A DNA stretch of 64,000 nt from Clostridia bacterium. GTDB taxonomy: Bacteria; Bacillota; Clostridia; TANB77; CAG-465. The position numbers and the translations under genes were made by a program. Below the pieces are notes generated by a model. The model did not search any database and was not told the origin of the DNA. It saw only the letters and a program-made list of their open reading frames with translations. Positions 1,693-59,830 of the stretch are shown piece by piece. The stretch covers positions 23,844 through 87,843 of the forward strand of contig JBJEXW010000003.1 of the NCBI GenBank assembly GCA_051886195.1, read 5' to 3'. Numbering within the stretch: the first letter of the stretch is position 1; the number at the start of each line of letters is the position of its first letter.

Positions 1693-2076
1693 ATGAAAAA
1701 AGCAAATATTGGAGATATATGGGTAGTCTTAAATCCTAAAATAAAAGCTAATAATGGTAATAATATAAGTGTTGAACTAGAAAAAAGACCGTGTTTAATC
1801 ATTGATGATGGACACGGTTTTATTATTGAAAAAAGTAATGATTATTTAGGAATGAAAATAACTACACAAAAAAGCTCAATTAGAAGAAAAGAAATAAAAA
1901 ATTGGGATGAAGTAGGACTAAAATATAAATCTTATTTAAGGATCGAACCTCCTATTAAAATAGAAAAAGAACAACTAATAAGAAAGCTAGGACAAGTAAA
2001 TAAATATGACTTATATCTGTATCTTAATGAGTTGTCAGATTATTTTAATGTAGACGTTCTAGCTAATTTCAAGTGA
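1693..2076 (+). CDS. PemK/MazF-like toxin-fold protein (orphan)
   Basis: Motifs GDIWVV, EKRPCLII and ITTQKS align with MazF/PemK GD(I/L)W, RPxvV and TTQ; RBS GGGAGG. Confidence 0.45.
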   Translation: MKKANIGDIWVVLNPKIKANNGNNISVELEKRPCLIIDDGHGFIIEKSNDYLGMKITTQKSSIRRKEIKNWDEVGLKYKSYLRIEPPIKIEKEQLIRKLGQVNKYDLYLYLNELSDYFNVDVLANFK

Positions 2077-2174
2077 AATAGCCTTAAATAAAGAGGCAAA
2101 CTGTACTTTGAAAACATAAAAAATAAAACTAGACAGGCAGGAAAAAAATTTTTAACTTTTTTTAGAAAAACTCT

Positions 2175-2202
2175 TGACTTTTGTATGTTGATACAATATA
2201 AT
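2175..2202 (+). promoter_or_regulatory. Sigma-A-type promoter (TTGACT, 16 nt, TATAAT) with TGTAT..ATACA operator repeats
   Basis: Near-consensus -35 and -10 boxes; two TGTATG-N2-GATACA-like repeats overlap the -10 and +1. Confidence 0.5.
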
Positions 2203-2224
2203 GTATGTAGATACAGGAGGAGGG

Positions 2225-2404
2225 ATTAAAATAGAAAAGAAAAGTAGGGCTGAATATTTTAGAAAAAGAAGAGAATTTTTAAGTGGATTTAATGTATTAA
2301 TTCCAAAAGAAAAATATGAAGCTATAAACGAAGAGTTAAAACGTCAAAATAAAACTAAAACCAAATGGCTTTTAGAAAAAATTGATGAAGAAACAAAAAA
2401 ATAG
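2225..2404 (+). CDS. Small ribbon-helix-helix-like regulator (cassette A)
   Basis: The ATG at 2201 lies inside the -10 box. RBS AGGAGG at 2215; the likely start is a non-canonical ATT/ATA in the same frame (uncertain). Motif FNVLIPKEKYEAI..WLLEKI is RHH-like. Confidence 0.35.
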   Translation: MKIEKKSRAEYFRKRREFLSGFNVLIPKEKYEAINEELKRQNKTKTKWLLEKIDEETKK

Positions 2405-2436
2405 AGTATTGTGACACTCGCCAAAGTAAACCACAA

Positions 2437-2530
2437 TACTCAACTCAATAAGAACTTTAGTCCTTATAAATCTATTGTATCACAGTAAGGGCTGAAGTTC
2501 AAGAGAAATTTTGAATGGAGGTCATTTTTT
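2437..2530 (+). ncRNA. Conserved ~90-nt leader element (copy A), candidate regulatory RNA
   Basis: About 95% identical to 8268..8356 while the flanking coding sequence has diverged; ends in the RBS GGAGG for the next ORF. Confidence 0.35.
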
Positions 2531-2794
2531 ATGGAAAGAAAGGTAAATATAGACAAAATAGAAGATGCAAATGTAAAGATAAGTAAGATTGAGAATTTAT
2601 TAGGATATTTAATAGAAAAGGATTATAGTGCTATAAATGCAGTTAACGAAGAACTAAGTGGAACTACATTAGAATATGTATTTAATATTAAATATCATGA
2701 TACACAAAACGTATTAGATATAATACAAGATTATGTGATTTCAATGAAGAAAGATATAGAAGATGCAATTAATTCTTCTATAAAGGAGAACTAA
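2531..2794 (+). CDS. Small hypothetical protein (MERKV family, cassette A)
   Basis: 87 aa; N- and C-termini shared with the 8357..8521 product. Confidence 0.4.
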   Translation: MERKVNIDKIEDANVKISKIENLLGYLIEKDYSAINAVNEELSGTTLEYVFNIKYHDTQNVLDIIQDYVISMKKDIEDAINSSIKEN

Positions 2795-2796
2795 TT

Positions 2797-2964
2797 ATGG
2801 GAATAATAGAAACTATGATCTTAATAATAATGTGTATTTTAAAAATAGCAATAATGAATTTACCTACGTTATTAATAATAATAGGTATACAAGCTGTTAC
2901 ATATTGGATAACAGGAATAAGTATATATAACAATATAATGAAATTTGTTTTAAGGAGGATATAA
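2797..2964 (+). CDS. 55-aa hydrophobic membrane peptide (cassette A)
   Basis: MGIIETMILIIMCIL...; about 80% identical to the peptide at 8524..8691; absent from the ORF track because it is shorter than 60 aa. Confidence 0.45.
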   Translation: MGIIETMILIIMCILKIAIMNLPTLLIIIGIQAVTYWITGISIYNNIMKFVLRRI

Positions 2965-2967
2965 ATT

Positions 2968-3741
2968 ATGAATGAAATAATAAAAATAAATAATGTAAGA
3001 GGATGTCAAACTGCAAATGGAATGGCACAATTAAATTTAGAGGATGTGGCAAGAGGATTGGGATTTACAAACGTAGCCACAAGTGGTCACGAAGTAGTTA
3101 GATGGGCAAGAGTAAGAAAATATTTAAATGATATAGGTTTTAATATAAAAAATGAAAAATTACCAGAATATATACCAGAGAATATATTTTATAAATTGTG
3201 CTTTAAAGCTAAAAATGAAGTGGCAAGAAGATTTCAAGACATGGTAACAGATGAGGTATTACCAAGTATAAGAAAACATGGAGCATATTTAACACCAGAT
3301 AAAGTAGAAGAAGTATTATTAAATCCAGATACAATAATAAATCTTGCAACAGAGTTGAAGAAAGAACGTTTATTAAACGAGCAAAACCAAAAACTAATAG
3401 GAGAATTAAAGCCAAAGGCAGATTATACAGATATGGTATTACAAAGTAAAGGAACAGTTACAATAAACGCAATAGCAAATGACTATGGTATGACAGCAAT
3501 AGCAATGAATAGGTTATTATATAGTTTAGGAGTGCAATATAAACAGGGAGAACAATGGTTATTATATGGTAAATATAGAAATTTTGGATATACACATAAT
3601 AAAACAATTCATTATCATCATAAGAACGGAACTCCTGCAACTAAATTAAATATGGAATGGACACAAAAGGGTAGACTATTTTTATATAGACTATTAAAAG
3701 AGCATGATATATTACCACTAATTGAAGAATTGAGTGCATAA
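2968..3741 (+). CDS. Phage antirepressor-like protein (Bro-N + KilA-C/ANT domains)
   Basis: N-terminus has a Bro-N pattern (..EVARRFQDMVTDEVLPSIRKHGAY); C-terminus is KilAC-like. Confidence 0.6.
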   Translation: MNEIIKINNVRGCQTANGMAQLNLEDVARGLGFTNVATSGHEVVRWARVRKYLNDIGFNIKNEKLPEYIPENIFYKLCFKAKNEVARRFQDMVTDEVLPSIRKHGAYLTPDKVEEVLLNPDTIINLATELKKERLLNEQNQKLIGELKPKADYTDMVLQSKGTVTINAIANDYGMTAIAMNRLLYSLGVQYKQGEQWLLYGKYRNFGYTHNKTIHYHHKNGTPATKLNMEWTQKGRLFLYRLLKEHDILPLIEELSA

Positions 3742-3803
3742 ATTGATATAAGAAAATTAAGGGGAATAGAGAAATCTATTCTCTTTTTATATGGAGGTAA
3801 AAG

Positions 3804-4091
3804 ATGAGTAACAATTATTTAGTAAAAGATATTCAAAGAATAGTAGTTGAAAGGGAAGATACAAAAGAAATATTGGCAGTAATAACAAATGATGATATTG
3901 AACCTGCCAATAATATTCAAGTTAGAATCAAACCTGTATATAAAAGAGAGATAGACAAATTTAATCAAATAGCTAAGCCAATAAGTGAATTTTTAAGGAA
4001 AAATTATAATATGCATGCAACAGCTATAATTACAGATAGTAATGCTAAAATTGTTATAGATGATATAGGAACACCAACTATAAAAGACTAA
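3804..4091 (+). CDS. Hypothetical phage protein
   Basis: 95-aa ORF with an RBS. Confidence 0.35.
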   Translation: MSNNYLVKDIQRIVVEREDTKEILAVITNDDIEPANNIQVRIKPVYKREIDKFNQIAKPISEFLRKNYNMHATAIITDSNAKIVIDDIGTPTIKD

Positions 4092-4108
4092 CTAAAAAGT
4101 TAGTCTTA
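4084..4108. terminator. Bidirectional hairpin terminator
   Basis: agactaact-aaaa-agttagtct lies between convergent genes. Confidence 0.4.
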
Positions 4109-4110
4109 AA

Positions 4111-4314
4111 TTAGTATATACGATGGTAGTTATGTGTTTTATCAATATATGATAGAGCACTACCTAATGATGAAGCATTTATAAAGTTAGAATATTCTGA
4201 ATAACTAACATTATAATATTGATAAATTGCTCCATCTTTGAATTGAACTTCTAATGTATTATTATCCCAACCTACACTAGAAATTCTACTTGAATATACA
4301 GGTGTTCTGTTCAT
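4111..4314 (-). CDS. KTSC domain protein
   Basis: Motif SSRISSVGWDNNTLEVQFKDGAIYQYYNVSYSEYSNF matches the KTSC consensus (S..I.SVGYD...L.V.F..G..Y.Y..VP..Y..F). Confidence 0.55.
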   Translation of the reverse strand: MNRTPVYSSRISSVGWDNNTLEVQFKDGAIYQYYNVSYSEYSNFINASSLGSALSYIDKTHNYHRIY

Positions 4315-4364
4315 TATATCACCTCCCTATAATTGACATTATAATACTAAAAATTGGTAAAAAC

Positions 4365-4455
4365 AACTATGCCCTGAGTAAGGCATTAAACTGCTCTTAT
4401 ATCCCTTAAAATTAAATTTATTCTAAAAGAGTTAAACTTAATAGTTTAGCTCTTT
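4365..4455 (+). repeat. ~90-nt two-hairpin boundary element, copy 1
   Basis: atgccctgagtaaggcat..aaactgctcttatatccctt..aagagttaaact-taat-agtttagctcttt; repeated at 9447..9527. Confidence 0.5.
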
Positions 4456-4471
4456 AATTATTTATTAGGAG

Positions 4472-7400
4472 GTGAAAAAGATGACAATTGAAGAAATAGA
4501 AATAATAGTAACTGCTAAAGTTGAAGAAGCATTACGAGAATTTAATAAGATGAAACCTCAACTAATGAAAGTAATGGAAGAAGTATCAAAAGAGATAAGC
4601 AAAGTAGATTTTAAGCAATTAAATAATACAGTAAAAGAAGGAACAAATGAAGTAAAGAAACAATTAAAATCTACATTTAATCCAGAAACTTTAGATCCTG
4701 GTTTTCTTAAAGCAACAGAAAAATTATATGCAGAAAGCATCAAAAAAACCCAAAAATATGTTAAAGACGTGCAAAATGAAATGTCAAAAGGAGACATGCA
4801 AGAAATAGGAAGACAAGTAGCACAAGCAACAGAGCAAGTTAATCAGGCTTTAAATAGTGAAAGTGTGCAAAAAGTAGTAAAAGACTCAGTAAAAGCTATA
4901 GAACAAATTAAGGATAAATTAGAAGAAGTAAAAGAAACAAACAAAGAGAATGAAATTAAATTAGATGTAAGTAATGAAGAAGCACTAGAGCAGATTACAC
5001 AATTAGAAAAAGAAATTGATTCGTTACAAAAGAAAATTACATCTAGGGAGATGAAATTGAGTGTAACAACGGATGCAATAGATAAAATACGATATGGAAA
5101 GCAAGATGAAATAAGAAAACAAAATCCTAGTTTAAGGGATATGCAAGTATCTAATAGAGCTGATTTTCAATTAAGTTCAGATACAGGATATACATCATTA
5201 GTAAATCAAGCGGATAAATTAAATACGGAAGTAACAAAGTATAATAGCTTACTTGAAAGTGCAAAAAGTAAATTAAGTGGATTAAAACAAAATACATCAC
5301 AAGTAGCGACAGAACAAGAAAAAACAAATACAAAAACAAGTAAATTACAAACAATATTCAATTCAGTAGGGGCTGGAATAAAATCTATGTTATCTGGACT
5401 AGGCAAGATGTTCCAAACAGGTGGTAAGGTAGTAAATATATTTAAAAAGTTTACTCCACATCTAGGCAATGGAATGAAAAGCTTATTAAAATATGCAGCT
5501 ACATTATTTAGCTTAAAGAGTGTATATAATACATTAAATTCAGCAGGTCAAGCTTGGTTATCTAGTCAAGATAGTGGTGCTAAACAATTAAGTGCAAATA
5601 TAGATTATATGAAATATGCACTAGGTAGTGCAGTGGCACCAGTAATACAATATGTAACTAATTTATTTTATCAACTATTAAAAGCTGTTCAAAGTGTAAT
5701 ATATGCCTTATTTAAGGTAAATATATTTGCTAAAGCGGGAGCAAGTGCTTATAATTCTATGGCAAATAATGCTAGTAAAGCAAGTAAAGCTAATAAAAGT
5801 TTAGCAAGTATACATAGTGAAATAAATAATGTATCATCAAGTTCTGGAGATAGTGGCAATAATGCATTAGTTCCAAGTATGGACTTTTCTAGTTTAGATA
5901 CACAACTTACACCATTAAAAAAAAGATTAGCTGATTTCTTTAGACCATTAGTTGAAAGTTGGAATACATATAGTCCACAATTAATATCAAAAGTACAAGA
6001 AACATTTAGTCAAATAGGATCATTATTAGAAAGCATAGGACAGAGCTTTATAAATATATTTGCAAATGGTACAGTATATACTATTTTAGAAAATATATTA
6101 AGTATTATAGGTAATATAGCAGAAGCTTTTGCAAATGCATGGAATTACAATGGTAATGGAGATATAATTGTACAAAATCTAGCAACAGCCTTAAATAATT
6201 TATTAATAGCAATAAATAATGTAGTACAAAGCTCAGGTTTTCAAGAATGGTTAAATAATTGTTCTGATAAATTTAGAGAGATAACAGAAAAAATTGCCGA
6301 AATAGATTGGCAACCATTAATTGATGCTTTAAGTAAAATAGGAGCATCAATAGGTACATTAGCTTTAGATATATTAAGTGGATTAGTAGATGTATTTAAA
6401 TGGTTTATTGAAAATCCAGATATATCAGGAATAATATTATCAATTGCAGCAGCATTATTACTTGTAGGTAGCGCAATAAATGCTTTTTCTGGTATTGCAG
6501 CAGTAATATCTTCTCTATCAAATTTAGCATCAGTAATTGGAACAACAATTTCAACTATTATGTCAGTTATAGGAGGAATATCTCTAATCATAGTTGGAAT
6601 AGTAACAGCTATTTCAAGTTTTGTAAGTATGCTTTCAGAAGGATTTAGCTGGCTTAAAGAGGTTATTATGCTAGTAGGAATTGCAATAGCAGCAGTAGGA
6701 GCAATTATTTTAGGAGCACCTGCACTAGTTGCAGGTGTTATAGCAGCAGTAGTTGCAGTTGTGGCTACATTAGTTGTTGCGGTTAAAGAACATTGGAATG
6801 AGATTAAGGAATTTATATCAAATGGCGTAGAAAAAGTTAAAGAAATATTTAATACAGTAATAGAATGGGTAAAAGAAAATTGGCAAGGATTATTATTACT
6901 AATAGTAAATCCATTTGTTGGAGCTTTTAAACTACTATATGATAATTGTGAAGGATTTAGAAATTTCATAGATAGTTTTGTAGAGAAAATTAAAAATTTC
7001 TTTAAAGATTTATGGAATAATATACAAAACATATTGTCGAATATAGGCAGTTTCTTTTCAAATATATTTAATAGTATAGGAAATGTAGTTTCGAATGTAT
7101 TTAATGGAATGTGGAATACAATAAGAAATGTAATTAATGCTATTTTAGGTGGAATAGAGTCTATGGCAAATGGTATAGTATGGGGAGTAAATAAAGTAAT
7201 AGACGTATTAAATAACCTTAATGTTCATATACCAGACTGGATACCAGTATTTGGCGGAAAAGACATAGGATTTCATATTAATCAAATGAGTACTGTTTCG
7301 TTACCACGACTTGCTAAAGGAAATGTAGCATGGAAGGAAACAGTAGGCATTTTTGGAGAGTATTCGGGAGCACAAAATGATCCTGAAATAACATCTCCAA

Positions 7401-7582
7401 GAAGTATAATGTATGAAACATTTGTAAAAGCTTTAAAAGAAAATAATAGCAATAATGATACTCCAATAAGTTTTAATTTGACGGCAATATTTGGAAATAA
7501 GAGAATAGGTCAAATTGCAATAGAAGATATTAAAGATATTAAGAGAGCAACAGGAGAAGATTTAGAGATTATATTTAGCTAA
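4472..7582 (+). CDS. Phage tail tape-measure protein
   Basis: 1036 aa; N-terminal coiled coil, central multi-TM Gly/Ala-rich segment, size and position typical of a TMP. Confidence 0.8.
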   Translation: MKKMTIEEIEIIVTAKVEEALREFNKMKPQLMKVMEEVSKEISKVDFKQLNNTVKEGTNEVKKQLKSTFNPETLDPGFLKATEKLYAESIKKTQKYVKDVQNEMSKGDMQEIGRQVAQATEQVNQALNSESVQKVVKDSVKAIEQIKDKLEEVKETNKENEIKLDVSNEEALEQITQLEKEIDSLQKKITSREMKLSVTTDAIDKIRYGKQDEIRKQNPSLRDMQVSNRADFQLSSDTGYTSLVNQADKLNTEVTKYNSLLESAKSKLSGLKQNTSQVATEQEKTNTKTSKLQTIFNSVGAGIKSMLSGLGKMFQTGGKVVNIFKKFTPHLGNGMKSLLKYAATLFSLKSVYNTLNSAGQAWLSSQDSGAKQLSANIDYMKYALGSAVAPVIQYVTNLFYQLLKAVQSVIYALFKVNIFAKAGASAYNSMANNASKASKANKSLASIHSEINNVSSSSGDSGNNALVPSMDFSSLDTQLTPLKKRLADFFRPLVESWNTYSPQLISKVQETFSQIGSLLESIGQSFINIFANGTVYTILENILSIIGNIAEAFANAWNYNGNGDIIVQNLATALNNLLIAINNVVQSSGFQEWLNNCSDKFREITEKIAEIDWQPLIDALSKIGASIGTLALDILSGLVDVFKWFIENPDISGIILSIAAALLLVGSAINAFSGIAAVISSLSNLASVIGTTISTIMSVIGGISLIIVGIVTAISSFVSMLSEGFSWLKEVIMLVGIAIAAVGAIILGAPALVAGVIAAVVAVVATLVVAVKEHWNEIKEFISNGVEKVKEIFNTVIEWVKENWQGLLLLIVNPFVGAFKLLYDNCEGFRNFIDSFVEKIKNFFKDLWNNIQNILSNIGSFFSNIFNSIGNVVSNVFNGMWNTIRNVINAILGGIESMANGIVWGVNKVIDVLNNLNVHIPDWIPVFGGKDIGFHINQMSTVSLPRLAKGNVAWKETVGIFGEYSGAQNDPEITSPRSIMYETFVKALKENNSNNDTPISFNLTAIFGNKRIGQIAIEDIKDIKRATGEDLEIIFS

Positions 7583-7652
7583 AAATAACAATATTATTGA
7601 AAAGTTGTAAAAAAACATATATAATATGTTATATATAAAAGGAGATAACAAT

Positions 7653-7892
7653 ATGTTTGGAAATAACAACAATAATACTGAAATAAGTTTAGAGCCTAAA
7701 AATGGTAATAAACATATATTATTGGTATGCCCATCAACTCCAAATGGAACTAAACCAGAAGTTTCATATACATCAAAGGTAAATGAAATACTTGAAGAGA
7801 TACAAAATAAGGGATATGAAGTATTAGATGTAAAATTGGAAATAGGCAGGAGAAATGGATTATCATATGAAGCACTAATAATATATAAATAA
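7653..7892 (+). CDS. Small hypothetical phage protein
   Basis: RBS AAGGAG upstream of MFGNNNN. Confidence 0.35.
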   Translation: MFGNNNNNTEISLEPKNGNKHILLVCPSTPNGTKPEVSYTSKVNEILEEIQNKGYEVLDVKLEIGRRNGLSYEALIIYK

Positions 7893-7896
7893 AAAA

Positions 7897-7925
7897 TAAG
7901 AAGAGTTAACAGAGGTTAGCTCTTT
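7897..7925 (+). terminator. Rho-independent terminator (aagagttaac..gttagctctt + T-run)
   Basis: Hairpin plus TTTTTT; the same hairpin sequence ends both cassettes. Confidence 0.5.
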
Positions 7926-7988
7926 TTTGTACCTTAAAAACATAAAAAACAGACAGAAAAATATTTTTAACTTTTTTATAAAAAACTC

Positions 7989-8031
7989 TTGATATATGTA
8001 TCCACAAATGATAATATATATGTGGATACAG
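7989..8031 (+). promoter_or_regulatory. Promoter (TTGATA, 17 nt, TAATAT) inside the palindromic operator TGTATCCACA-N13-TGTGGATACA
   Basis: 10/11 inverted repeat centred on the -10 box. Confidence 0.5.
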
Positions 8032-8037
8032 AAAGAG

Positions 8038-8223
8038 GTGAGTAAAATAGAAGTAAAAAAAATGGGTAGACCTACTAATGATCCTAAAAAATTAAATACT
8101 AGAATTAGATTATCAGAAAAAGATGTAGAAAAATTAAATTTTTGTTGCAGTAAGACAGGAAAATTAAAATCGGAAATAATAAGAGAAGGAATAGATAAGG
8201 TTTACACCGAATTAAATAAATAA
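8038..8223 (+). CDS. Ribbon-helix-helix regulator (cassette B)
   Basis: GTG start after the RBS GAAAGAGG; motif MGRPTNDPKKLNTRIRLSEKDVEKL is RHH-like. Confidence 0.45.
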   Translation: MSKIEVKKMGRPTNDPKKLNTRIRLSEKDVEKLNFCCSKTGKLKSEIIREGIDKVYTELNK

Positions 8224-8267
8224 AAAGAAGAAACCCGTTACATATCTTGGCGGATACACGAGTTTCT

Positions 8268-8356
8268 TACAAGTAAGAATTTTAGTCCTTACAAATCTAA
8301 TTGTATCACAGTAAGGGCTGAAGTTCAAGAGAAATTTTGAATGGAGGTCATTTTTT
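8268..8356 (+). ncRNA. Conserved leader element (copy B)
   Basis: About 95% identical to 2437..2530. Confidence 0.35.
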
Positions 8357-8521
8357 ATGGAAAGAAAGGTAGATAAAAATTGGAAATTAGAGGAACAAAA
8401 TTATGAATTATTAAGAAAATATGAAGATACACAAACAGTTACAGATATATTATTTGATTATTTACTTTCGATAAGAAAGGAATTAAAAAATGTAATTGAT
8501 ACCTCTGTGAAGGAGGATTAA
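8357..8521 (+). CDS. Small hypothetical protein (MERKV family, cassette B)
   Basis: 54 aa; paralogous to 2531..2794. Confidence 0.4.
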   Translation: MERKVDKNWKLEEQNYELLRKYEDTQTVTDILFDYLLSIRKELKNVIDTSVKED

Positions 8522-8523
8522 TT

Positions 8524-8691
8524 ATGGGAATAATTGAAGTAATGATTTTAATGATAATGTGTATCTTAAGAATGATAATAATAAACTTACCTACATTATT
8601 AATAATGATAGGTATACAAGCTGTTACATATTGGATAACAGGAATAAGTATATATAATAAAATAAAAGATTTTATGATAAGGGGGATGTAA
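8524..8691 (+). CDS. 55-aa hydrophobic membrane peptide (cassette B)
   Basis: MGIIEVMILMIMCILRMIIINLPTLLIMIGIQAVTYWITGISIYN.. Confidence 0.45.
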   Translation: MGIIEVMILMIMCILRMIIINLPTLLIMIGIQAVTYWITGISIYNKIKDFMIRGM

Positions 8692-8693
8692 TT

Positions 8694-9437
8694 ATGAATA
8701 ATAAATTAGAAATAGTAAAAAGTGAGAACTTCAATGGAATAGAATGTGATTTTTATAGTGATAAAAAAGATGTTTTTATGACAATAAATCAATTGGCTAA
8801 TTGTTTAAAATATAAAAATGGAAGAAAAGGAATTGAAAATCTAATTAGTAGAAATGAATATTTAAAAAATAGAGAATTTTCAGTTACCCTCGATATGAGG
8901 GCTACTGATGGTAAGCAATATAATACAAGGGTATTTACAGAAGATGGTATATATGAAGTAACAATGTTGGCAAGAACAGAAAAAGCAAGAGAGTTCAGAG
9001 ATTTTGTAAGGAAGGTCTTAAAATCTTTGAGAAAAGGAGAATCTAAATTAATAAAGACACCAGAACTACAAAGATTACAAATTGAAGCTAAATTAAATAA
9101 TTCAAGAGCTAGAGTGGCAAATGTATTATTAAAATTAGCAGATAAAACAAATATACCAGAATATAAACAAGTAATATTATCAAATGTAAGTGCTATATTA
9201 TCTAGAAATCAATTAATACCATTACCTAGTGCAGAAAAGAAAACATATAGCGCAAATGAAATAGGCGATATATTAGGAATAACAGGGAATATGGTAGGAA
9301 GACTTGCAAACGCAAATAATTTAAAAACAGATAAATATGGAAAGTTATTTTATGATAAATCTAAATATAGTAGCAAACAAGTCGAAACATTTAGATATTA
9401 TGAAAATATAATTCCAGAATTAAGAAAAATATTATAA
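8694..9437 (+). CDS. Phage antirepressor-like protein (Bro-N domain)
   Basis: FNGIECDFYSDKKDVFMTINQLANCL is a Bro-N signature. Confidence 0.6.
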   Translation: MNNKLEIVKSENFNGIECDFYSDKKDVFMTINQLANCLKYKNGRKGIENLISRNEYLKNREFSVTLDMRATDGKQYNTRVFTEDGIYEVTMLARTEKAREFRDFVRKVLKSLRKGESKLIKTPELQRLQIEAKLNNSRARVANVLLKLADKTNIPEYKQVILSNVSAILSRNQLIPLPSAEKKTYSANEIGDILGITGNMVGRLANANNLKTDKYGKLFYDKSKYSSKQVETFRYYENIIPELRKIL

Positions 9438-9446
9438 AAATAAAGG

Positions 9447-9527
9447 GACTATGTCCTGAGTAAGACATTAAACTGCTCTTATATCCCTTTAAAATAAAAT
9501 TTATAAGAAGAGTTAACGAAAGTTAGC
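9447..9527 (+). repeat. Two-hairpin boundary element, copy 2 (includes a terminator)
   Basis: About 90% identical to 4365..4455. Confidence 0.5.
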
Positions 9528-9623
9528 TCTTTTTGTATTATAAATACTAGTTATGTCATTGATGTTGAAAAAATTAAATAATAATATTATTATTTTGGAT
9601 ATATATTATTACTATATACTTAG

Positions 9624-9670
9624 TTGAAAATGTAAAAAAAATATGTTATAATTTGTCAACGAGGTTGACA
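9624..9670 (+). promoter_or_regulatory. Promoter (TTGAAA, 17 nt, TATAAT) followed by the palindrome TGTCAAC-gag-GTTGACA at +1
   Basis: Consensus boxes; a perfect 7-bp inverted repeat overlaps the transcription start and the RBS. Confidence 0.55.
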
Positions 9671-9674
9671 GCTA

Positions 9675-10982
9675 ATGAGTATTAGAAAATTAAAAATAAG
9701 TTCTAGGGCAAAGAAAATCATTCGTATTAAGAACCAAAGTAAAGAAAAGTTAAGAAAGGTTCTTAAGTATAGGAATAAAAAGAATAAAAAAATGTATGTA
9801 AAGTATTTTACTAAATATAAAAAAAGAAAACAAACAGAGTTAAGTAAAATATTTAGATTATTAGATGATAAAAAATTTTATAAAAAGCCAAGTATCCTTG
9901 TAAGTGGAACAGCTATTATACAAATACCTAGAGTTTTTTGTTTTTCTAAAAATGCTTATGAAACTATTGACATAATAAAAGAGGTAGCATATGCATGTAA
10001 GAATAATCTTGATATAATAATAGATCATTCTGAATGCCAGTATTTAGATTTGGGAGCATCTACAGTTATGGATGTTCTTATAATGGAATATAAAGCAAAA
10101 ATAAAGGCATTGCGTATGCATAAAGGTATAAGAGGTAAACTATCTAAAAGTCAAAAAGTAAATGATTTATTAAAGTTTAGCGGGATAGTAAAACATTTAG
10201 GATTAAATAATGAAATGTCGAATGAATTAGAATTGTTTCCATTAAAAAAGAATAAAGCTCCTGGTGTTTTAGGCGCTGATATAATTGAATATTATAAAAG
10301 GTGTTTAGCAACAAAAGGATTTGAATTAACTGAACAAGGAGAATTATATTTCGGAAATATACTAGGGGAAGTATTAACAAATTGTAAGGATCATGGCGGA
10401 GAAAATTCACAATGGTATGCAATGGGACATTATATTACTAAAGAAGGAAATATAAGCTTAATAATTTTTAATTTTGGACAAACAATTTTTGAGGGCTTAA
10501 ATAGTAAGGAAACATCGAAAGAAACCATAAAAGATTTAGATAATATTACTAATAGACATATAAAATTATTCAATTCAAAGTGGGACAAAGAAACGTTATG
10601 GACTTTATATGCATTACAAAGTGGTGTAAGCAGATTAAAATCAAAGGAAGATCCAACCAGAGGTACTGGGACAATAAAAATGATTGATGGATTCCAGACT
10701 CTTGGCAAGAAAATAGCAGAGGATGGCAAGAAATTAAATCCAATAATGAGTATTACATCTGGTAATGTTAATATAGTTTTTGATGGAACATATAATTTAA
10801 AAGAGGAACATGTAGATGGTGGAATTAGAAAAATAATTGCATTTAACAAGGAAAATGATTTGTATAAATTACCAGATCAGAATTATGTAAAAAATATAAA
10901 AAATTACTTTCCAGGAACAATAATAACTATGAATTTTTATATTGATAATAAGTATATAGATTTAATGAAAAAAGGAGAATAA
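9675..10982 (+). CDS. GHKL (HATPase_c_2, SpoIIAB/RsbW-type) kinase-ATPase with a Lys-rich N-terminus and a sensor-like middle region
   Basis: N-box LGEVLTNCKDHGG, G1-like IIFNFGQTI and G2-like TRGTGTIKMI resemble SpoIIAB EAVTNAIIHG / DEGVGI / ERSGMGFTIM. Confidence 0.5.
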   Translation: MSIRKLKISSRAKKIIRIKNQSKEKLRKVLKYRNKKNKKMYVKYFTKYKKRKQTELSKIFRLLDDKKFYKKPSILVSGTAIIQIPRVFCFSKNAYETIDIIKEVAYACKNNLDIIIDHSECQYLDLGASTVMDVLIMEYKAKIKALRMHKGIRGKLSKSQKVNDLLKFSGIVKHLGLNNEMSNELELFPLKKNKAPGVLGADIIEYYKRCLATKGFELTEQGELYFGNILGEVLTNCKDHGGENSQWYAMGHYITKEGNISLIIFNFGQTIFEGLNSKETSKETIKDLDNITNRHIKLFNSKWDKETLWTLYALQSGVSRLKSKEDPTRGTGTIKMIDGFQTLGKKIAEDGKKLNPIMSITSGNVNIVFDGTYNLKEEHVDGGIRKIIAFNKENDLYKLPDQNYVKNIKNYFPGTIITMNFYIDNKYIDLMKKGE

Positions 10983-10984
10983 TA

Positions 10985-11320
10985 ATGAAAGAAATGATAA
11001 TTAGTTTGCAAAAATATAGAGCAAATGGAGAAAAAATACTTACAGGAAGAGACGAAGGAAAAAGAATAAGGGAAACCTTAAAATTAGATAAGATAGATAA
11101 GGAAGATATAACAGTAACTATAGATATACCAGGCGATATTTTATCATTAAATTCATCATATTTTCTAGGATTATTTCAAAAAAGTATAATACTATTAGGT
11201 GAAGAAAAATTTAGAAAAAAGTATATTTTTAAATGTGAAAGAAAATCAATAGTTGACATTAATGTTGAAGATGGAATACAAGAAGCATTAAATAATGCGA
11301 ATGCTTTAGGAGGAAAATAG
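10985..11320 (+). CDS. STAS-like (DUF4325-type) partner protein
   Basis: 111 aa; ILSLNSSYFLGLFQ..FRKKYIFKC..DGIQEAL fits the DUF4325/STAS pattern; translationally coupled to the GHKL gene. Confidence 0.45.
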   Translation: MKEMIISLQKYRANGEKILTGRDEGKRIRETLKLDKIDKEDITVTIDIPGDILSLNSSYFLGLFQKSIILLGEEKFRKKYIFKCERKSIVDINVEDGIQEALNNANALGGK

Positions 11321-11922
11321 TGAAAAAGGGTTATGTGTATATAGCATTATTTGTATTAATAATTGTCATAAATGTACTAGCGTTTACTATATTCAAAGAA
11401 ACAACATTTGAAAATAAAATAGCCTTTGTAAATATAGTATATCTTATTATAGTATATTTTGTTGATAGGATAGTTGAAAGCTTTGATAAAAAAGATGATA
11501 ATAAAAAATATTGGTTTAAAAATTTTATATTAGAAAAATATATATATGATTATTGTGAGTTTTTTGATTCAGGAGCTGATATTTTAAGAGAGGCAAGTGA
11601 TAGAAAAAATAAATATGTTGAAAGTAATATAGGTGCAAAAGATTTAAAAGAAATGTCTGAAAAATTTCAACAAGAATTATTTGACAAATTTTCACTAATA
11701 AAAAGAAAAATTACATCTATAAATGCATTTATACAAATTTATGATAATGATATTTATTTTAAAGTTCAAGAAGTTATTGAAGAGTATCAAAATAAATTTA
11801 CAGAAATGCTTGAAAATCAACTCAACAATGTAAATGACAATATTGAAAAGGATATAATTGAAATATATGAATTTCGAAGAAAATTATTAGAAATTTTTTA
11901 TAAACATTCTATAGATTTATAA
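11320..11922 (+). CDS. 2-TM membrane protein with a cytoplasmic helical domain (candidate effector)
   Basis: GTG start overlaps the upstream stop codon; two N-terminal TM helices. Confidence 0.45.
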   Translation: MKKGYVYIALFVLIIVINVLAFTIFKETTFENKIAFVNIVYLIIVYFVDRIVESFDKKDDNKKYWFKNFILEKYIYDYCEFFDSGADILREASDRKNKYVESNIGAKDLKEMSEKFQQELFDKFSLIKRKITSINAFIQIYDNDIYFKVQEVIEEYQNKFTEMLENQLNNVNDNIEKDIIEIYEFRRKLLEIFYKHSIDL

Positions 11923-22400: not shown

Positions 22401-22820
22401 AAAATTATGGTAAACTAATGATATATAAGGGAGTGGAGGATTATCTCCTCCTTCTCCTTATAATAGTTTTTTTATTAGTAGGCTTAGCTTTTTTTATAGT
22501 TATTTTTAAAGTGATTATTCCAGTAATCAACGTAACTATATGAATTGCTAAGTCTATTATTTTTATCATTAGTTCCATTTTGCCCCCCTTCCTAACTACA
22601 TCTATATTATATCATACTAACGTTAGTATGTCAACAAAAATAATAAAAAATTTATAAATTTTTTAAAAGATTAATAAACTTAATTAAGTGAATATTGTTA
22701 ATGTCACTTGGACAAATTTTGGACAAATTTTTAGCAAAAATAAGTAATAATTATTAACTATATGCAATAATTAAAAAATAAAAAAAATCAAGCAAATAGC
22801 TTGATATACTTGATTTTAAT

Positions 22821-22896
22821 TGGTGCTCCTGAGACGAATCGAACGTCCGACCAACGACTTAGGAGGTCGCTGCTCTATCCACTGAGCTACAGAAGC
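22821..22896 (-). tRNA. tRNA-Arg (anticodon CCT)
   Basis: Cloverleaf GCTTCTGTAGCTCAGTGGATAGAGCAGCGACCTCCTAAGTCG...CACCA; anticodon loop CTCCTAA. Confidence 0.85.
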
Positions 22897-53381: not shown

Positions 53382-53710
53382 GTTTTAGTATCTCAGATGA
53401 TTGCTTGTTTATGCAAGAGGAAAGTCCGGACACTATAGAGCAGGGTGCTAGATAACGTCTAGTGGGAGTGATCCTAAGGAAAGTGCAACAGAAAATAACC
53501 GCTATATATAGTAAGGGTGAAAACGTGAGGTAAGAGCTCACGAATAATTATGGAGACATAATTATGGTGTAAACCCCACCTAGTGCAACACCAGAACTAA
53601 ACATTAAGGTTGCTCGCCAAGTTTTAAGTTGGTGGCTTGAAATGTGTAGCAATATACATTCTAGATAAATGATCATCTAATACAGAATCCGGCTTACGAG
53701 ATGCTAAAAC
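53382..53710 (+). ncRNA. rnpB: RNase P RNA, type B
   Basis: GAGGAAAGTCCGGAC; GGGTGAAAACGTGAGGTAAGAGCTCACG; ACAGAATCCGGCTTA; P1 stem GTTTTAGTATCTC/GAGATGCTAAAAC; promoter TGgTATAAT at 53367; terminator at 53716..53745. Confidence 0.85.
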
Positions 53711-53883
53711 ATATTAAAAAAGCTCTTTTTTGAGCTTTTTTTTATTCTTTATTTGACATAGTAAAACAAAAATGATAATATATTACACAACATAATATAT
53801 TTAACTTTATTTTTATTAAAAAGGAGGGGTATTTATGAGTAAAGATAATTATGAATTAAAATGTTGCATTTGCAAAAAGCCTA

Positions 53884-59673: not shown

Positions 59674-59731
59674 TAAATATTTATATATAAAACTATTGAA
59701 AATAAAAAGATTATATTGTATAATATTTCTA

Positions 59732-59812
59732 TGCCAAGCGATAGAGTACTGTGAACCTTGTCAGATCCGGAAGGAAGCAGCAATAAGCAATATACTCTAT
59801 GTGCTTGGTTTT
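59732..59812 (+). ncRNA. ffs: Signal recognition particle RNA (small, 4.5S-like)
   Basis: Conserved domain IV GTCAGATCCGGAAGGAAGCAGC; closing helix GCCAAGC/GCTTGG; promoter TGTATAAT at 59717; position upstream of dnaX as in Bacillus. Confidence 0.7.
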
Positions 59813-59830
59813 TTTATTAGGAGGTTTAAA

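Follow-up and report, generated by a model that had tools for sequence, protein, structure and literature searches.

The DNA analyzed here is a 64,000-nt stretch (the window) of about 26% GC from a metagenome-assembled genome of a Clostridia bacterium (locus tags ACI4ON_00450 to _00500), of which roughly the first 22 kb comprise the tail and lysis end of a prophage. Two gene cassettes, A (about 2102–4455) and B (about 7928–9534), lie on either side of the tape-measure gene of this prophage. On balance, we consider each to be an independently transcribed 'ant'-type moron within the tail operon, kept down by a negative circuit of two layers, a small ribbon-helix-helix (RHH) repressor and an antisense RNA. 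In the first layer, which is supported at the level of sequence and fold, a near-consensus sigma-A promoter would drive the RHH gene, and the cassette-specific operator repeats that flank its -10 box suggest that the operon represses itself. In the second layer, a predicted antisense RNA of about 75 nt would be made from a strong extended -10 promoter on the opposite strand of the spacer between the RHH gene and the first small open reading frame (ORF). By pairing with the operon mRNA, it may strip the upstream partner from a sense-strand hairpin, and the freed segment, an RNA copy of the antisense -35 region, could then pair with the region around the Shine-Dalgarno sequence of the first small ORF; alternatively, the duplex may be cleaved by RNase III. 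Either outcome would lower the expression of the tightly packed downstream genes for a small helical protein, a 55-aa peptide and a Bro-N/KilAC protein. By analogy with the immI region of phage P22, entry into a naive cell would give a short burst of the payload followed by shut-off, and in a lysogen the cassette would be silent and would provide immunity against an incoming cassette of the same type. Since A and B differ in RHH protein, operator, antisense terminator hairpin and cargo, they appear to be separately controlled units derived from mosaic recombination. A broader proposal, which we advance more tentatively, is that these phage cis-antisense RNAs belong to a hitherto undescribed family that Rfam lacks, with a UUGGCG kissing loop like those of CopA and Inc, and that this family and exchangeable RHH-operator pairs make up a plug-and-play 'pulse generator' front end of Clostridial phages, which may be placed before genes for Bro-N, AntA, pRha or small membrane peptides, in virion operons and elsewhere.

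Common scaffold of the two cassettes

Both cassettes have the same order, consisting of a promoter, an RHH gene, a spacer of about 130 nt, a small helical ORF, a gene for a 55-aa membrane peptide, a Bro-N gene and a conserved 3' end block. In cassette A these are, on the plus strand, the RHH gene (from 2201 or 2231 to 2404), the spacer (2405–2530), an ORF of 87 aa starting with MERKV and predicted to form a two-helix hairpin (2531–2794), the gene for the hydrophobic 55-aa peptide, which starts 2 nt past the stop of the preceding ORF (2797–2964), and the cargo, an antirepressor-type gene assigned Bro-N and KilAC (ANT) domains by Pfam and PHROG (2968–3741). Their counterparts in cassette B, also on the plus strand, are the RHH repressor gene (to 8223, with the start at ATA 8047 or ATG 8062), the spacer (8224–8356), an ORF of 54 aa that corresponds to the 87-aa MERKV protein with an internal shortening (8357–8521), the peptide gene (8524–8691), the product of which is 75% identical to the cassette A copy, and a Bro-N gene (8694–9437) whose C-terminal domain is unlike that of the cassette A cargo. 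An earlier note, made from the sequence of the window, had described this five-part order in both cassettes, and the ORFs confirm it; the gene between the cassettes, outside both of them, is indeed that of the tape-measure protein (4472–7582, plus strand; phrog_1535, E = 8e-81).

Comparison of A with B by blastn gave four collinear blocks: i) the promoter block (2102–2236 versus 7928–8052, 73.5% identity), ii) the 3' part of the spacer (2449–2549 versus 8274–8375, 96% identity), iii) the 3' half of the small ORF together with the peptide gene (2651–2988 versus 8383–8714, 78% identity), and iv) the 3' end block (4366–4435 versus 9448–9516, 89% identity). The similarity is thus far beyond chance and is not confined to the promoter. 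However, no sequence similarity could be detected between the two RHH proteins, and between the two Bro-N proteins only a marginal relationship is seen (BLASTP E = 0.2). This makes the cassettes mosaics on a common scaffold and not duplicates: the term paralogous, used for them before, holds for the scaffold but not for the regulator or the cargo, and the idea of one duplicated module, whether by tandem or segmental duplication, has to be given up in view of these non-homologous regulators and cargo.

The promoter of cassette A (TTGACT-17-TATAAT, plus strand, 2174–2202, with the -10 box at 2197–2202) is near consensus and is preceded by an A/T-rich, UP-element-like 5' boundary block (2102–2173, plus strand). 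Two direct 14-mers, TGTATGTTGATACA (2182–2195) and TGTATGTAGATACA (2202–2215), flank its -10 box on the same strand and form the putative operator. In cassette B, whose 5' block starts at 7928, the promoter is TTGATA-17-TGaTAATAT (7989–8017, plus strand) and the putative operator is a 13-nt inverted repeat around the -10 box (7997–8009 and 8018–8030). The operators are thus as different as had been claimed, and the possession by each cassette of its own near-consensus promoter, operator repeats at the -10 box and terminator agrees with the earlier suggestion of independently controlled accessory loci. Neither a minus-strand ORF nor a divergent promoter was found upstream of either cassette promoter. 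A LexA/Cheo box was considered for the upstream block, and none was seen on reading the sequence.

The annotated ATG of the cassette A RHH protein (RHH-A) at 2201 lies inside the -10 box, and the frame downstream of it contains no ATG, GTG or TTG. An ATA at 2231 is located 7 nt after a GGAGG, coincides exactly in the alignment with the position at which most members of the RHH-A family have their Met start and is kept at this position in three related loci (L001, L002 and L010) as well as in cassette B (8047). Since the annotated start falls within the promoter, RHH-A is likely to begin at 2231 with the rare start codon AUA. The RHH-A family consists of 56 clusters of proteins, mostly of 55–59 aa, with an invariant SRAEYF..RR motif. 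RHH-A has no Pfam match, and its AlphaFold2 (AF2) model (pLDDT 80) has the RHH fold, beginning with a basic helix at the N-terminus that is followed by an extended stretch and two further helices. The cassette B protein (RHH-B) matches the transcriptional repressor family phrog_876 (E = 1.2e-13), with sub-threshold matches to the RHH_1 family of Pfam and to the aCcr1 RHH family.

At its 3' side, cassette A contains a terminator-like hairpin read from the sequence, GGAATAGAGAAATCTATTCTCTTTT, following the cargo gene (3762–3790, plus strand), and the 3' end block CCTGAGTAAGGCATTAAACTGCTCTTATATCCC with a terminator at 4426–4455 (block and terminator 4366–4455, plus strand), which is directly upstream of the ribosome-binding site (RBS) of the tape-measure gene. 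Cassette B ends with the corresponding block and a terminator at 9509–9534 (together 9448–9534, plus strand). Two genes are found between hairpin and end block in cassette A (3804–4314), a 95-aa ORF (3804–4091, plus strand) and a KTSC-domain gene (4111–4314, minus strand; Pfam E = 2.9e-14), and a bidirectional terminator (4084–4107) separates the one from the other. Both are absent between terminator and end block in L001, L002 and L010, where the hairpin of 3762–3790 also precedes the 3' end block; judged from these sequences, they were inserted secondarily into cassette A, downstream of the Bro-N terminator and upstream of the end block. The 5' block of cassette A was found again in L001, L002, L010, L012 and L006. 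Cassettes of the A/B type have conserved ends, TTTTGTACCTTRAAAACATAAAAAAC at the 5' side and GTCCTGAGTAMGACATTAAACTGCTCNTTATATCCC at the 3' side, the latter being present in L001 (1614–1637, minus strand), L002 (6270–6293) and L010 (6257–6280). This 3' end directly precedes the RBS of the next late gene in L001, L002 to L005 and L010, and possible roles of the block are those of a processing site, recombination junction or re-entry element.

Predicted antisense RNA and sense-strand hairpin

The spacer between the RHH gene and the first small ORF had been regarded as a passive leader, a description that no longer fits, as it carries a convergent predicted antisense RNA gene. In cassette A this gene spans 2394–2502 on the minus strand and comprises the promoter TTGAAC-17-TGaTACAAT (2502–2474), a start near 2467, giving an RNA of about 75 nt, and a terminator hairpin (2441–2404) with the loop UUUGGCG and a U-tract (2403–2394). 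In cassette B it spans 8216–8328 on the minus strand, with a promoter identical to that of A (8328–8300), a start near 8293 and a terminator hairpin (8268–8228) with the loop CCGCCAAG, followed by a U-tract. The predicted RNAs are 73–77 nt long, consist of a short 5' hairpin and the terminator hairpin, and have full complementarity to two-thirds of the spacer, at its 5' side. Their promoter, which has an extended -10 box, sits in the spacer block shared by A and B at 96% identity, and the strict pattern of this promoter occurs 5 times on both strands of the 64 kb, compared with 0.2 expected. The terminator hairpins of A and B abut the stop codon of the RHH gene and differ in sequence; the U-tract exists on the minus strand only, where it is complementary to the Lys codons with which the RHH gene closes.

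Relatives were collected by three routes, through the 55-aa peptide (14 clusters), an exact 21-mer of the spacer and the RHH-A family. The 21-mer had no match in IMG/VR and a single one, L001, in the GTDB representative genomes, and scans of IMG/VR and the JGI metagenomes with the back-translated peptide found nothing. In all 16 leaders examined, a minus-strand promoter and a minus-strand terminator are present at the same relative places (the promoters of L024, L020 and L026 were read by eye from the sequence). The antisense -35 box is TTGAnn in every one of the 16, and the -10 box is extended in all but L020 and the C. difficile phage CDMH1. These leaders include types dissimilar in sequence to those of A and B (L006, L007, L015 and L016), as well as a phage of 41% GC (L026), a chromosomal locus (L020) and CDMH1, which is a cultured phage.

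Covariation in the terminator was analyzed with ten distinct hairpins, whose stems were registered by hand and counted by script, as a MAFFT alignment had misaligned them. The stems are 100% paired over 9–11 bp with 2–5 pair types per position, a result reached by none of 2000 shuffles. Among the first 8 nt past the stem, 6–7 are U on the minus strand versus 0–3 on the plus strand, in all ten hairpins. This hairpin (hairpin 1) was also considered as a plus-strand terminator or attenuator and rejected, there being no U-tract on that strand. UUGGCG or its complement occurs in six of the ten loops, the others having related motifs, e.g. UUUGGUCGG or GUUUACCAG, and the motif is retained while the stems diverge.

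The calculated energies of the cognate antisense-leader duplexes are -122 and -128 kcal/mol, compared with -30 and -42 kcal/mol for the non-cognate ones, in which the residual pairing is due to a shared 5' stretch of 20 nt. The loop motif lies on opposite strands in the two cassettes, and the loop that the predicted antisense RNA carries in A (UUUGGCG) and that in B (CGCCAAG) are complementary to each other over 7 bp (2414–2431 and 8239–8257; -10.6 kcal/mol). The two antisense RNAs, or the two mRNAs, could thus make loop-loop contact with each other, and the complementarity suggests that the two antisense RNAs could titrate each other, thereby coupling the cassettes.

In the sense RNA, spacer A is predicted to form a second hairpin (hairpin 2; 2452–2500, plus strand) of 16 bp with arms at 2452–2467 and 2485–2500. 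The first arm, which can pair with the 5' end of the antisense RNA, is the antisense target, and the second arm is an RNA copy of the spacer and -35 box of the antisense promoter. Over eight leaders, hairpin 2 is 97.7% paired with two compensatory pairs, and its G-U pairs form in the plus-strand RNA only. As a candidate plus-strand terminator it was discarded, the U-run beginning 8 nt past the stem. Such a well-supported sense hairpin would also be expected if the spacer were merely a structured 5' leader or processing site, with fortuitous minus-strand signals and with an A/B identity that stems from a recent recombination junction, and both the chance frequency of promoter-like hexamers in AT-rich DNA and the lack of a matching Rfam family agree with this. 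We nevertheless regard that explanation as improbable, given that the minus-strand promoter keeps its relative position even in leaders of unrelated sequence, that the U-tract of hairpin 1 is confined to the minus strand in every case and that the UUGGCG motif has outlasted the divergence of the stems. Moreover, in L001 three substitutions break the sense stem and fall exactly in the loop of the antisense 5' hairpin, a pattern which suggests that the antisense RNA itself is under selection.

To model the binding of the antisense RNA, intramolecular pairing of the region it covers was forbidden. In L007, the calculated probability that the Shine-Dalgarno sequence is unpaired fell from 0.92 to 0.00 once the antisense target was blocked. 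In L006 the folds with free and sequestered Shine-Dalgarno sequences are nearly isoenergetic (ddG 0.1 kcal/mol), and in L015 and L016 the form with the free sequence lies 3–5 kcal/mol above the minimum. In these four leaders the partner-switching segment corresponds to the antisense -35 region copied into RNA, as in the circuit proposed above.

Several observations weigh against the two-layer circuit as we propose it. In leaders of the A/B type, the accessibility of the Shine-Dalgarno sequence is predicted to change little and not consistently; simple occlusion of the Shine-Dalgarno sequence by the antisense RNA was accordingly dismissed for them, and translational refolding is only one option in the window, the others being cleavage of the duplex and transcriptional interference. 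The antisense RNA does not overlap the RBS: 51 nt separate its predicted start near 2467 from the downstream Shine-Dalgarno sequence at 2518, and the antisense promoter lies between the two. Its start site, its 3' end and its very existence are predictions, and loose promoter-like matches are at chance frequency in DNA of 26% GC (17 versus 19.7 expected). The 96% identity of the spacers could in part reflect recent recombination rather than selection. As the cassettes have no Mnt-like second repressor, how they stay off in a lysogen can only be inferred. Finally, the antirepressor activity of the Bro-N/KilAC proteins is taken from annotation, and the 55-aa peptide is given no role in this explanation.

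Rfam gave nothing within 2000–9700 on either strand, either with E values up to 5 or at gathering thresholds, and in a blastn search of both cassettes against 50,697 phage records the spacer had no match, the only matches being in the KilAC coding part and, for cassette B, in an 80-nt stretch of the RHH gene.

Payload, relatives and known circuits

The cassette A cargo matches the Pfam families ANT (E = 4.7e-31, 107.8 bits) and Bro-N (E = 3e-7, 31.4 bits), both above the gathering score, and phrog_130, anti-repressor Ant (E = 2.5e-63). The cassette B cargo matches Bro-N (E = 1.1e-11, 45.6 bits), likewise above the gathering score, and phrog_1726, anti-repressor (E = 2.3e-39). The Pfam family of P22 Ant (P22_AR) was not among the cargo matches, which were to Bro-N and ANT (KilAC) only. 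For the 87-aa protein, no match was found in Pfam, PHROG or NCBIfam; it has 3 clusters of relatives and an AF2 model of two helices with low confidence (pLDDT 65). Of all cassette proteins, the 55-aa peptide is the best conserved, with 13 representative proteins among 1.84 billion.

With the same regulation, the payload may serve a different purpose, the Bro-N/KilAC protein and the peptide acting in superinfection exclusion, anti-phage defence or counter-defence. The peptide is membrane-embedded, the cassettes lie in hot spots beside other morons (a MazF-like gene, genes of the SocA/Panacea and SHOCT kinds, and a module of three genes that includes a STAS-like DUF4325 protein), and PADLOC gave weak matches of the cassette B cargo to the candidate family PDC-S05 (E = 5.7e-6). 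However, these matches span only the generic Bro-N domain, and PADLOC made no other defence assignment in the cassettes, the peptide included. Since, in addition, the best family matches of both cargoes are annotated as anti-repressors and a burst followed by shut-off suits a function on entry better than a constitutive defence, we hold this alternative to be possible but clearly less probable than an antirepressor payload.

The position and conservation of the peptide could also point to a type I toxin-antitoxin-like module for prophage maintenance or abortive infection, in which a membrane toxin is coupled to the prior ORF in a hok-mok-like manner, the antisense RNA is the antitoxin and Bro-N is a passenger. 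The peptide is indeed shorter than 60 aa, hydrophobic and begins 2 nt past the upstream stop, the cis-antisense RNA with its kissing-type loop targets the leader of the first ORF, and the gene behind the peptide varies (Bro-N, AntA, pRha or HNH) or is absent. This is, however, an unlikely explanation, because the same front end is found without the peptide, before Bro-N or other small ORFs (L024, L026, L029 and CDMH1), because known type I systems are not set behind an RHH autorepressor in a multigene operon, and because PADLOC has no match for the peptide. An antirepressor-type payload behind an RHH repressor and an antisense RNA thus remains the reading we prefer.

The relatives also show how freely the parts are combined. 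L029 and L030 (3169–3300) contain an A-type RHH gene, a new operator (GTATCGAGATA repeats) and a terminator hairpin identical to that of cassette B, and carry compensatory changes in sense hairpin 2, which is direct evidence for the independent recombination of RHH type and antisense RNA type; L012 has a B-type RHH gene with an A-like hairpin. Each cassette type has an operator of its own, and in all of them it flanks the -10 box. The first ORF is of the MERKV type, of the MFENII type or of another type, and the payload consists of Bro-N plus ANT, AntA plus ANT, pRha, an HNH endonuclease or nothing. Insertion sites are located before the tape-measure gene, after it among morons, before the terminase/portal genes, before head genes or near an integrase gene. 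In L020 (3501–3990 of a contig of ENA ERZ17912802; also in GCA_948528025.1), a gene of the RHH-A family is followed by a spacer, in which a promoter-like site and a terminator lie on the minus strand, and by a 67-aa helical ORF, in DNA of higher GC that is apparently chromosomal, between a nucleotidyltransferase (NTase) toxin-antitoxin pair and spoIVA. This locus suggests that the front end of RHH gene and antisense RNA is not confined to phages.

The myophage CDMH1 (L032; NC_024144, 12152–13399) carries gp19, a member of the RHH-A family, a spacer of 117 nt and gp20 (Bro-N), with a minus-strand promoter and a terminator in the spacer as in the other leaders. The cassette lies between an XkdN-like tail chaperone gene and the tape-measure gene, i.e. 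at the site of cassette A, but differs from A and B in lacking the MERKV ORF and the 55-aa peptide. In the CDMH1 record, gp19 is annotated as a hypothetical protein and gp20 as Bro-N, and no RNA is annotated at the locus. A search of the literature found no description of such a module in Clostridial phages, and CDMH1 offers a ready experimental model for it.

The immI region of P22 (mnt/arc/sar/ant) is a moron located in the late operon and shows wide variation among related phages (PMC2629481), and with this 'ant moron' and the RHH–Bro-N cassette of CDMH1 at the same site, the layout cannot be called unusual, as it had been before. The cassettes resemble immI in several respects: they would be independently expressed modules, are inserted in a late (virion) operon and vary between relatives, they have an RHH repressor (Arc in P22) that is encoded upstream of the antirepressor-type gene and is presumed here to be cotranscribed with it and to repress its own promoter, and they would produce a small convergent antisense RNA from the repressor-antirepressor spacer, as predicted in silico. 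They differ in the absence of a divergent Mnt-like second repressor, in a Bro-N/KilAC cargo not homologous to P22 Ant, in the two or three small ORFs between RHH gene and cargo, in the Gram-positive host and in having no sequence or Rfam relation to immI. In addition, the cassette antisense RNA stops short of the RBS, whereas P22 sar is said, from the work of Liao in 1987 and Schaefer in 1997, to cover the ant site.

In plasmid pMV158, the RHH protein CopG acts together with the countertranscript RNAII, which is made from the copG-repB intergenic region, is complementary to the mRNA just upstream of the repB translation signals and inhibits the translation of repB, not that of the RHH gene (PMC4485353). 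The likeness to the cassettes is one of architecture only: the RHH autorepressor gene comes first, and the intergenic countertranscript has an intrinsic terminator and is complementary to the region upstream of the signals of the next gene. The payload of pMV158 is a rolling-circle replication initiator on a plasmid, compared with small ORFs and Bro-N/ANT in a prophage tail region; RNAII is 48 nt long with a single hairpin and no U-turn motif, whereas the cassette RNA would have about 75 nt, two hairpins and a UUGGCG-type loop; and the target of the latter lies some 50 nt away from the Shine-Dalgarno sequence.

UUGGCG is the loop motif that the title of Asano 1998 (cited in PMC10724649 and PMC3753616) names for the Inc antisense RNA of ColIb-P9. 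The predicted cassette RNAs share with the Inc RNA of ColIb-P9/IncI and with CopA of R1 the UUGGCG hexanucleotide loop of the recognition hairpin, but the homology is limited to this motif, and the plasmid RNAs serve enterobacterial plasmid replication with no RHH partner in the operon. UUGGCG acts as a U-turn recognition loop. The gene regulated in ColIb-P9/IncI and in R1 lies behind a translationally coupled leader ORF and is controlled by refolding of the mRNA. In the immI region of phages P1 and P7, c4 RNA represses the small ORF icd, to which translation of the antirepressor gene is coupled and whose product is bioactive; c4 is processed from the operon transcript, is thus of the same strand, and acts in trans on the RBS. 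RNA control of a small ORF upstream of an antirepressor gene is common to P1/P7 immI and the cassettes, but the former has no RHH gene, and the C4 family of Rfam gave no match in the region with E values up to 5.

On their defining features, the cassettes fall outside both the P22 immI and the pMV158 families, although the type of circuit is already known; no new kind of biology is revealed, the novelty being the predicted RNA family itself, which is undescribed in Rfam and in the literature found. If the antisense RNA is real, the logic of RHH autorepressor plus countertranscript would extend to temperate phages of Clostridia, including CDMH1, and would explain why the 'leader' is more conserved than the genes flanking it. 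Regulator, RNA and payload would then assort independently and provide a natural toolkit for low-GC Gram-positive bacteria, made up of orthogonal RHH-operator and antisense-target pairs. It would also locate where antirepressor-type genes, which are able to trigger cross-induction of prophages, stay silent in lysogens.

Prophage setting

Upstream of cassette A, the prophage encodes the major tail protein (372–857) and the tail chaperone (872–1336), followed by a moron with a MazF/PemK-like toxin gene (1693–2076; phrog_1936, E = 1.8e-7, with a sub-threshold Pfam match), which has no obvious antitoxin gene adjoining it. Directly 3' of the tape-measure gene is an ORF of 88 aa (7626–7892; phrog_17572) that has its own promoter (TTGAAA-17-TATAAT, 7597–7625) and terminator (7902–7927) and is one more single-gene moron. 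A three-gene moron (9675–11922) with a strong extended -10 promoter of its own (9624–9652) separates cassette B from the remaining tail genes. Its products are a protein of 435 aa (phrog_3364), a STAS-like DUF4325 protein of 111 aa and a protein of 200 aa that has a hydrophobic segment at the N-terminus; for this module, PADLOC gave no match.

The prophage part is followed by chromosomal RNA genes, namely tRNAs and the genes for RNase P RNA and signal recognition particle (SRP) RNA. A strong minus-strand promoter-like site (22606–22634) adjoins a tRNA gene (22824–22896), and this site beside the tRNA gene probably marks the end of the prophage. The presence of the RNase P RNA and SRP RNA genes further on (53385–53711 and 59730–59815, respectively) indicates that the remainder of the window is chromosomal.

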